64,000 nucleotides of DNA from Gammaproteobacteria bacterium. Its GTDB lineage: Bacteria; Pseudomonadota; Gammaproteobacteria; JAJFKG01. Positions 33,751 to 35,982 of this stretch are shown here, in pieces. The translations under genes and the position numbers were made by a program. The notes under the pieces were generated by a model. The model did no database searches. It was not told the DNA's origin and was given only the letters and a program-made list of their open reading frames with translations. Each line of letters opens with the position of its first letter. Position 1 is the stretch's first letter. Location of the stretch: assembly GCA_965116795.1 (NCBI GenBank), contig OZ220716.1, positions 64,001 through 128,000 on the forward strand. The letters are read 5' to 3'.

Positions 33751-35794
33751 GGTGATTACCTTTTGTTGCTACTGTTTCTTCATCTGCTGTGTGCACTTCT
33801 TCATGCTCAGTCACCGCCTGTATTTCAATCACCTCACCGCGTGGGCGCACCGACATCACCCGTGCTAATGTGCTCCACTGATTATCCACACCAAAGGCCA
33901 CATGCGTTCTTTCTTGAGCGTCACCGGTATACACCTCCATATCTAATGGCTCTTGCAAGATAACGTGATTGTCATCGTTACCTTTCATCACTTGCCACAC
34001 ACCACTGACACTGCCATCACCTTTACGCAACCCAATCACATGTTGCTGGGTGCTATCGGTATCCCACACCAAGTGCTCTGATAAGGTTAACGTGTTACCG
34101 TCTTTGCTAATCACTTCTGCACTCTGCCCCCAACGTGGCATGTCATGATTGACCGCAATCAAGTCCCCATAGGTTGGGATTAACCCTTCAAGCTCTGTCT
34201 GAAAGGTGATGATACGCCTGCGATAGTGATTAGCCGCACTCATGTACTTGCCTTCACGAATCGCTTGTTGCTTATCCGTACACCCAAACAACCTCACCCG
34301 TGCAGGTTGTTCACTGATACTGTTGGGTAAACTCACGGCCACTTCATCAGGTCGCCAGGTTTTCGCTGAGAAATACTCGACAATCACACTGTCTGCGGTA
34401 TCGTCACTGGGTAACAGGTAATGTAATTTGAAACTGTGCTTAACCATGTTACGTGGTGAGAATAAGGCAACCGGAATGGTTCTTGTTTCATCTCTGACAA
34501 AGCGAATCACCCCACTTTGCATGAAACACACAACGCGCCCACACCTCGCAGTACGGGTTAACGCCTCCCACACCGTGATAGCTTGGTCAAACACCGCATC
34601 AACCGTATCCCCACGTGCTTGCCAAATAGCATCTAACGTGGACAATGCCTCTACATCAATACGATTATCTTGCAGCTTGCCACCGTACTCACTGTTAGCA
34701 ATGTCGGCTAACGCCCAGGCAATCGAGCGTGTGGGTTGTGGGCTACTCCAGCCTGTGTGCTTATCCCACACGGGCAACTTGCGCGTGACAAGGCAGTTCA
34801 CCATCCTTGAAGCGCGTTGGGATAAGTTATCAGTCGCACGCATTGCGATGGCTAATAAGGTCACATTGCCAACATCAAGTGAGTTGTTAAGCGTTGCCTT
34901 TAACCCACCCCAACACAGCGCATGGCCTGCACGCGCTGAACTATCTTTATTGTTAGTGCGCAGTAAGCGCACTTCATAACGGGCAGGAGTAACGTCATAA
35001 TGATAGGTTTTTCGCTGTGGGGTGTTGGTGGCAAGCGTTAGGGTTTCAGTGCCTAACACGTGCCAATCATCAACAGGCTCACCTTCATCATCAATCTTGC
35101 GTGCTTCCACTTTCCAATTAAGTGTACGCCTGGCTAATCCCCCATTATCATTGGCATAGTACACCCCGCGTGGCATCACTATATCAATACTGAGTTTATG
35201 TGCAGCTGTGCTAGCTGGGTTTGCTACAAAGCCCCCCACATAACCACCCCCATCATGCGTTGACAATAACTCTTGACCTGCGACTTCTGGCGCAGTCACT
35301 ACATCTGTATCAAACAAGGTAACCTGATTACCGGGAGAGATGACTTCATAGTGAATCTCACTAAAGGATTCAATAGGCGTATCTTCAATGAGAATGCGCT
35401 CAACCTCATACTCACCTTGACCAATGCAATGGAGTTGATACACGTATTGTTGATTATTCACATAATGCGCATAAGGGGTGGCGGCTAAATCAGGATACAC
35501 CAAGTGTCTTCCGTAAATCACGGGGATGGGTGAGCCAAGTCGTGCTTGATTACCACGCGCTTGTAAGGAATAGGTGGGACTCGGGGCAGGTGTATTATCA
35601 AACCCATGCACAGAGGTCACCGGTGGTGGGACTAATACATTGATTAACGCGGTGCCAGCTAGTGCCACCCCTGCTGTCATTAACCCAACACCGATACTGC
35701 TACTTACCCCAATGGCACCGGCTAGCGCACCACCGATAGCAGGCGCGGCCACCATCACGGCAATCATTGTAAGTTGAAATTTTGTTAATATTCA

Positions 35795-35970
35795 CTTTAA
35801 GAGGTGAGCCGCTAAGCTGAATTAACCTAGCTGCGCGATCGTGGGCGACCGTGCAATCATAGGTCTTAACAACCGTGTTAATCTGGGTACCCTAGATCGA
35901 CCTCGATACGTTTGAATAGTTGAAAGGGCTAAACGCCCGTTTACAATCCTAAACAAACATTAAACGCACG
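35795..35970 (+). ncRNA. IS110 bridge RNA (boundaries approximate)
   Basis: Four guide segments match the reconstructed target and the donor junction: GCAATCAT, GTGTTAAT, ATAGTTGA, TTACAATC. Confidence 0.8.
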
Positions 35971-35982
35971 AGGGAATATGTA

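Follow-up and report, generated by a model that had tools for sequence, protein, structure and literature searches.

How does an IS110 element come to split four prophage copies of one tail gene at the same codon in a gammaproteobacterial genome, and does its left non-coding end encode the RNA that would select those sites? We addressed this question in a 64,000-nucleotide stretch of DNA, referred to as the window (positions 64,001 to 128,000 of contig OZ220716.1 in assembly GCA_965116795.1). From the letters of the window, a sequence-only reading had proposed an IS621-type bridge RNA with four readable guides, an AT(T) core, and a promoter formed when the element ends are joined.

The element and its recombinase

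The recombinase carries PF01548 and PF02371, both above the Pfam cutoffs, and a search of the PDB returned IS621 and ISCro4 as sole matches (E values of 1.5e-33 and 8.7e-33). The open reading frame and the catalytic residues (DEDD plus Ser) are intact, and the domains, PDB matches, and catalytic residues all agree with membership in the IS110 family. N78 aligns with N84 of IS621, and the wedge residues F256/I257/M260 align with Y264/M265/M268. The element has no long terminal inverted repeats at its ends; a short core is repeated on both sides, and the empty site is scarless. The left junction reads GGCAATC-ATT-GTAAG and the right junction CATAGTTG-ATT-AATACAG. All features are collected in Table 1.

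Table 1. Features of the element, its predicted bridge RNA, and the interrupted prophage gene (positions in the window)
Feature	Position	Strand	Remark
Lambda-like prophage morphogenesis module, terS to endolysin	31062..61115	-	Hosts the element
J-like tail-tip gene, 3′ part, 676 codons	33737..35767	-	PF13550, PF24801; phrog_31 (central tail fiber J), phrog_469
Left target GCAATC	35760..35765	+	Target positions 2-7
AT core, left copy	35766..35767	+
IS110 element	35768..37236	+	1,469 bp counting a single AT core
Right donor TGTAA	35768..35772	+	Donor positions 10-14; first T completes the -35 of the circle
Extended -10 (TG-T-TAATAT) of predicted bridge-RNA promoter	35783..35791	+	TG at 35783-35784
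Predicted bridge RNA	35798..35975	+	Both ends inferred
Predicted 5′ stem-loop	about 35811-35835	+
Predicted target loop	35836-35900	+
Left target guide GCAATC plus core AT	35853..35860	+
Target-loop inner hairpin GGT..ACC	35862..35874	+
Right target guide GTTA plus AT	35877..35882	+	Reads AT-TAAC; TAAT through a G-T wobble
Target-loop handshake positions C,U	35883..35884	+	By analogy with IS621 positions 81-82
Predicted donor loop	35910-35954	+
Left donor guide ATAGTTG	35916..35922	+	Following base variable across the clade, probably not read
Donor-loop inner hairpin GGGC..GCCC	35926..35938	+
Right donor guide TTACA plus AT	35941..35947	+	Contiguous
Donor-loop handshake positions C,C	35948..35949	+	First C invariant (32/32), complements donor G7
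IS110 recombinase, 319 aa	35983..36942	+	D9, E54, D96, D99, S235
Right non-coding end, 292 nt	36943..37234	+	Terminates in left donor ATAGTTG
Left donor ATAGTTG	37228-37234	+	Its TTG begins the -35 of the circle
AT core, right copy	37235..37236	+
Right target TAAT	37237..37240	+	Target positions 10-13
J-like gene, 5′ part, about 100 codons	37237..37536	-	Same frame across the site

The source genome contains four copies with 100% identity across 1,472 bp. A class-wide protein search gave matches in 5 of 400 genomes and a phylum-wide pattern search in 4 of 401, the source genome included. In the closest two genomes, which are 90% and 97% complete, neither the element nor J was found with the queries used. 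A scan of viral sequences with the single protein gave no match. The 15-mer of the left junction had at least 120 matches in viral sequences; none of the 80 loci examined contained the recombinase or J, and we regard these as chance matches. Among the assembled Logan contigs of eight runs, which drop rare forms and can show presence only, no circle or empty-site joints were found. The element is also present in runs X5 and X6, which belong to two other studies; its right flanks there resemble those of copies 2 and 3 of the source genome, and these runs were therefore not counted as new insertions. In run X7, the letters that follow 35789 in one contig correspond to window sequence starting near 37319, a join that would remove most of the element together with part of the J 5′ end and that is not a precise excision.

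Insertion sites in prophage J-like genes

The element has inserted recurrently in one conserved codon of a multicopy prophage tail gene, a feature that the sequence-only reading had missed. All four sites read C/G-GCAATC-AT-TAAYAC and fall in the same codon of four diverged J-like genes; the site is the reverse strand of the J-like codons LRSVL/MIAVM, and the element lies antisense to the gene. The earlier suggestion that other genomic copies should sit in similar sequences is borne out by the remaining three, all of which are in GCAATC-ATT-AAYAC. The occupied J genes share 71 to 89% identity with one another on their 3′ side and the copies of the element share 100%, from which we conclude that there were four separate recent insertions.

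Thirteen J loci lie between positions 97,740 and 2,253,749 of the source genome, and the site is kept in 11 of them (4 occupied and 7 empty). One of the empty paralogs, at 1419818, is a perfect match to the guides; matching has thus not meant filling. The pre-insertion genome holds 11 matches to GCAATCATTAAY, compared with about 5 expected by an order-3 Markov model: nine are in J genes, and the two elsewhere are both empty. With 4 of 9 J sites occupied versus 0 of 2 other matching sites, a preference for J beyond the sequence itself lacks statistical proof. A single family of lambda-like prophages is represented in the 2.45-Mb source genome by nine near-complete copies and several partial ones, the J genes of which are 71 to 90% identical. 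With a guide that matches a coding site conserved across a prophage family, a single insertion sequence can disrupt the same codon in several prophages.

The predicted bridge RNA

The four guide words proposed for the left end are present where they had been placed: GCAATCAT at 35853-35860, GTGTTAAT at 35875-35882, ATAGTTGA at 35916-35923, and TTACAATC at 35941-35948. Two of them need trimming. GTGTTAAT matches as the right target guide, but its first two letters are scaffold positions, and TTACAATC matches as the right donor guide, but its final C is a handshake position. When the 202-nt left end was shuffled 20,000 times with its dinucleotides preserved, all four words occurred in none of the shuffles and three occurred in one.

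The inner stems GGT/ACC and GGGC/GCCC, described previously, form both when the guides are kept unpaired and in the consensus of 32 sequences. The free fold of 35790-35982 is only weakly better than shuffles (z score of -1.84), and in it the donor guides collapse onto each other, so we relied on the alignment instead. The aligned scaffold has two stem-internal-loop-stem domains with conserved pairing; its 22 named pairs are paired in 94.6% of cells, and 17 of them have changed on both sides, whereas 0 of 500 shuffles paired as highly and slid controls reached 35 to 51%. A comparison with RNA models, also proposed earlier, produced no Rfam match at the gathering score. The Pfam domains, the PDB matches to IS621 and ISCro4, the compensatory changes in the scaffold, and the covariation of guides with flanks described below support reading the left end as a putative IS110 bridge RNA with a core other than CT, as the sequence-only reading had it. 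Two scaffold bases adjoining the right target guide complement all four targets and could extend the target pairing.

Target frame and core across the clade

For comparison, we assembled a clade set of 32 distinct elements, consisting of the window's own and 31 relatives at 38 to 57% protein identity whose left ends parse. Duplicate copies, truncated loci, and 10 loci at 38 to 39.5% identity, the left ends of which did not parse with the clade donor motifs, were excluded. Target guides were read via scaffold anchors and flanks via junction motifs, each distinct guide contributing a single row. The search patterns fixed the AT of the right guides, the core of the right junction, and donor G7, and placed no constraint on the target guides, the handshake bases, the first base of the left core, or the flanks; the three fixed features are invariant by construction and hence are not used as evidence. 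The left guide of one relative, L033, was parsed wrongly and is scored against the result.

Flanks and guides agree over a limited stretch. On the left, they match at positions 2 to 7 in 13, 15, 14, 15, 17, and 15 of 17 rows (shuffled means of 4.5 to 6.6), and on the right at positions 10 to 13 in 12, 12, 12, and 10 of 12 (shuffled means of 3.0 to 4.2), whereas position 1 (2/17) and position 14 (4/12) are both at chance. The permutation P values for the guide-flank match, 1e-4, overstate the significance because the relatives are kin, but the contrast between positions is still clear. Guides that track flanks at positions 2 to 7 and 10 to 13, and not at 1 or 14, indicate a 12-bp target frame, and the predicted programmed target is 6+AT+4, or 12 bases (GCAATC-AT-TAAY).

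The junctions also define the core. Immediately after AT, all 25 left junctions have T, whereas the 25 right junctions have G in 15, C in 5, A in 3, and T in 2; in 12 of 12 cases this base varies together with the right target guide. The core is therefore AT instead of the ATT proposed earlier, and the third T in the window is a coincidence. At left junctions, the core is AT in 22 of 25 elements and GT in 3 of 25. These three relatives combine a GT left junction and a GT left guide with an AT right junction, consistent with top-strand cleavage on the 3′ side of the core, as is reported for IS621-type recombination (Hiraizumi 2024; PMC11208158).

Many other relatives occupy palindromic intergenic repeats. 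In two relatives, L014 and L023 (G161), the right junction (left donor, AT, and right target) recurs 40 nt downstream, and in L045 it recurs about 460 nt downstream; these recurrences may be element ends left in tandem by repeated insertion or by half-match events. A more distant IS110 at 36 to 37% identity, present in five copies (L002, L003, and L005 to L007), has another left end and donor without the motifs of the AT clade.

Handshake bases

The handshake register was taken from IS621 numbering (PMC11208158 and PMC13626964). On that numbering, the window's element has C,U as its target-loop handshake bases and C,C as its donor-loop ones; positions 6 and 7 read TC in the target and TG in the donor. 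This would give one handshake pair before exchange and one after (net 0), compared with 1 and 3 for IS621. Across the clade, C is the first target-loop handshake base in 27 of 29 elements and the first donor-loop handshake base in 32 of 32; the latter complements target position 7 (A in 11, G in 9, T in 3, and C in 2) in 9 of 25. Because this C is invariant and complements target position 7 in a minority of elements, donor G7 appears, by analogy with the IS621 scheme, to pass clade-wide from one C to the other. The net handshake gain on insertion, calculated for 20 elements, is +2 in seven, +1 in seven, 0 in four (the window's element included), and -1 in two.

A handshake C that pairs with donor G7 before exchange is known from IS621 as an engineered arrangement (G166A) that lowered activity (PMC11208158), and its invariance here runs counter to the IS621 rule. 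As the pre-exchange C:G7 pair is invariant in a mobile clade, the IS621 handshake register may not be exactly transferable to these elements.

A predicted junction-formed promoter

Joining the ends of the element gives TTGATT-17-TAATAT, as had been proposed. However, the accompanying claim that this promoter is absent from the inserted state holds for the -35 box alone, which there reads ATCATT (2/6), since the extended -10 is also present when the element is inserted. Judging from its letters, this extended -10 could give some activity without circularization. Automated scoring of the window's element used a tied 18-base spacing; the 17-base spacing gives TG-T-TAATAT. Across the clade, the joined -35 is 4/6 (observed for 20 elements and assumed for 5 for want of a right end), the -35 of the inserted state is 0 to 2 of 6 in 25 of 25 elements, and a -10 of at least 4/6 at a spacing of 17 to 18 bases is found in 21 of 25, with a preceding TG in 15 of 25.

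Phage-borne relatives

A scan of viral contigs with the donor-loop pattern found four loci, one of them known from a previous search. Related elements split a terS gene (L105/L106) and a phrog_877 gene, the latter three times at the same site (L107 to L109). In the Wolbachia phage WOcauB1 (AB161975.2 gp20; L230), the sole match in phage collections, the element lies between two tail-sheath fragments. The left ends of these phage-borne elements are near-identical except in the guides, and the guides of each element fit its own flanks at 9 to 10 of 10 programmed positions. As these relatives were drawn from phage collections, they show re-aiming at phage genes and no preference for them. The WOcauB1 element has a recombinase 48% identical to that of the window, the same donor ends, the same RNA scaffold, and guides that match its own flanks (5/6 and 4/4); it differs in its guides and target gene and in being co-oriented with that gene. 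IS110 copies were recorded in WO prophages, with the Wolbachia groups ISWpi12, ISWpi13, ISWpi14, and ISWen2, in work that predates bridge RNAs (PMC3205602), and ISWpi12 is also reported within a plasmid helicase gene (PMC6401122).

Proposed mechanism and alternative explanations

We consider it highly probable that this is a recently spread IS110 element using the IS621 cycle with altered geometry, in which a bridge RNA directs recombination to a site of 12 bp in J genes. What is directly observed is the anatomy of the element and its guides, the fit of those guides at all four insertion sites, and the guide-flank covariation in relatives; the RNA, the circle, and the chemistry are drawn by analogy from IS621. 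By that analogy, a circular intermediate would join the ends and complete the TTGATT-17-TAATAT promoter, and an RNA of about 175 nt would bind the recombinase. The target loop would read 6+AT+4 and the donor loop ATAGTTG and AT-TGTAA. S235 would make top-strand cuts on the 3′ side of the AT core, and after strand exchange the DEDD site would resolve the junction. The conserved J codons, in a gene present about 11 times in this genome, would serve as a repeated, host-dispensable landing site, much as REPs do for IS621. The effect on the phage is likewise drawn from what is interrupted: the occupied prophages are likely tail defective.

Could the element instead be a reversible switch by which it or the host keeps prophages tail-less until precise excision restores J, with a handshake that gives no bias toward insertion? 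When the element is removed with one core retained, a frame of 752 to 776 aa is open at all four sites (empty J paralogs are single open reading frames of 752 to 768 aa), and all four host modules have the full terS-to-endolysin set, one of them with a stop in the protease alignment. The net handshake of 0 (1 pair before and 1 after exchange, against 1 and 3 for IS621) and the related elements that with other guides split terS (L105), the phrog_877 gene, and the tail sheath would also agree with a switch. There is a precedent as well in an integrase clade aimed at prophage late genes: helper-embedded PICI satellites are integrase based and co-oriented with the late gene that they interrupt (PMC10111431). 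Like the window's element, those satellites repeatedly interrupt prophage late genes as mobile elements; they differ from it in that it is a single IS110 open reading frame, cargo-free, predicted to be RNA guided, and antisense to J. Because of that antisense orientation, read-through of late genes would not yield bridge RNA. Moreover, a net handshake of 0 or less occurs in 6 of 20 clade members and is hence not special, and five of the nine loci with the full terS-to-endolysin set are complete modules with no insertion in J, which means that phage production is not switched off. IS621 excision is reported in a preprint to leave the donor site intact (10.64898/2026.08.31.748434), and the phage-borne relatives reflect ascertainment, many others targeting palindromic intergenic repeats. 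We judge a switch to be distinctly improbable. A broader proposal, that AT-core IS110 elements have been repeatedly re-aimed at prophage morphogenesis genes (J, terS, tail sheath, and phrog_877) as RNA-guided, possibly reversible prophage disarmers in a clade that uses the 12-bp frame and the donor-G7 hand-off, seems to us unlikely.

Passive spread of an element that is no longer mobile, by prophage duplication or by gene conversion among J paralogs, would account for the presence of all copies in homologous genes, and two of the occupied paralogs are indeed mutual nearest neighbors. However, those two are 86 to 89% identical beside the site, and the J gene in the window is 71 to 72% identical to the other three occupied genes, against 100% for the element. 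The gene in the window is also sister to an empty paralog (support of 1.0), and the open reading frame and catalytic residues of the recombinase are intact, which leaves passive spread very improbable. Finally, each of the four copies is bordered on either side by ATT, which could be taken as a trinucleotide core (or a shifted TT), implying a new cleavage stagger. Against this stand the variable base after AT at right junctions, with its covariation with the right target guide, and both left guides, which cease matching before the third base; a core of this kind is exceedingly improbable. With an AT core, the recombinase is a putative programmable one, as the sequence-only reading had suggested.

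Relation to known bridge RNA systems

By comparison with characterized systems, the element is likely a variant of the known IS110 bridge RNA system that works in an IS621-like manner. With IS621 and ISCro4 (IS622; PDB entries 8WT6 and 9T56) it shares the DEDD plus Ser recombinase, a predicted RNA in the left end, the order of 5′ stem-loop, target loop, and donor loop, a predicted junction-formed promoter of the sigma-70 type, and a T as the second core base. The earlier assignment to an IS621-type architecture therefore holds for the bridge RNA plan but not for the geometry, which is 6+2+4 versus 7+2+5 in IS621. After the G-N anchor, the target guides are 8 and 6 nt compared with 9 and 7 nt in IS621 (scaffold from supplement oligonucleotides). 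Further differences from IS621 are a contiguous right donor guide, a left donor guide that leaves the core unread, an AT core in place of CT, and a target that is a coding prophage gene and not a REP. Three narrow IS621 features are lacking here: the CT core, the 9-nt left guide in a 14-position frame, and pairing of the donor-loop handshake with target position 7. Features of IS1111 elements (seekRNA) are absent, given that the guides are in the left end and the ends lack 7- to 17-bp subterminal inverted repeats.

Durrant 2024 (PMC11208160) described bridge RNAs, the junction promoter, and reprogramming of the IS621 core to AT, GT, and TT. IS621 favors CT or GT cores, and AT is less efficient (PMC11208160 and PMC11208158). 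The different core inferred in the sequence-only reading has precedents in published data: the same donor junction letters occur in seven records of file 5 of the Durrant 2024 supplement, in which donor records are numbered up to at least 5,146, and also in file 4. These AT-core donors are present as data only, with no clade description found in the portions of that work consulted, and among the rows listed, the file 4 target loop is largely unaligned. A two-motif search of Durrant Supplementary Table 1 gave no ISfinder-named close protein of the clade among the rows listed. Two further surveys, one of 86 bridge RNA models over 32,190 loci with 12 to 40 programmable bases (10.64898/2026.10.21.760802) and one that screened 72 orthologs (10.1101/2025.05.14.653916), may include the clade. 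Our literature search, which covered few subscription journals, found neither a natural AT-core bridge RNA with a 12-bp target, nor a guide aimed at a prophage tail gene, nor a clade-wide handshake pattern unlike that of IS621; the accessible parts of 10.64898/2026.08.14.744561 and PMC13604230 contain nothing on the first two. A natural AT-core recombinase of 319 aa would widen the range of sites open to bridge editing, and a 12-bp target is less specific than one of 14 bp.

Additional observations

The left end resembles a known small RNA on the opposite strand. The full Rfam model sX15 (RF02234) matches 35822-35972 on the minus strand at 44.3 bits, below the gathering score of 55, and gave 0 matches at an E value of 0.01 in 20 relatives of the element. 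The sX15 consensus, when reversed, resembles a CT-core bridge RNA. Northern blots confirmed sX15 and its complement asX7 in Xanthomonas, and 10 homologs are reported in Stenotrophomonas maltophilia K279a (PMC3300014); the sX15/asX7 pair may be an unrecognized bridge RNA and its antisense.

At 35920-35947, the donor guides jointly spell a sigma-70-like TTGAAA-16-TACAAT (10/12) about 35 bases upstream of the recombinase start. Six such sites occur in the region versus 4.4 in shuffles, the spacing varies among relatives, and this site may be due to chance. The right end contains an imperfect palindrome of about 140 nt at 36979-37119 (74% self-match), within which a TTGACA-16-TATATT site is located at 37073-37100; right ends of relatives range from fewer than 20 to more than 300 nt. 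In the late region of the prophage, open reading frames of 397, 387, 1,075, and 174 aa (31607-32800, 38158-39321, 48200-51427, and 55950-56474) have no PHROG match at 1e-8, the 397- and 387-aa frames also have no Pfam match, and all four are possible cargo.
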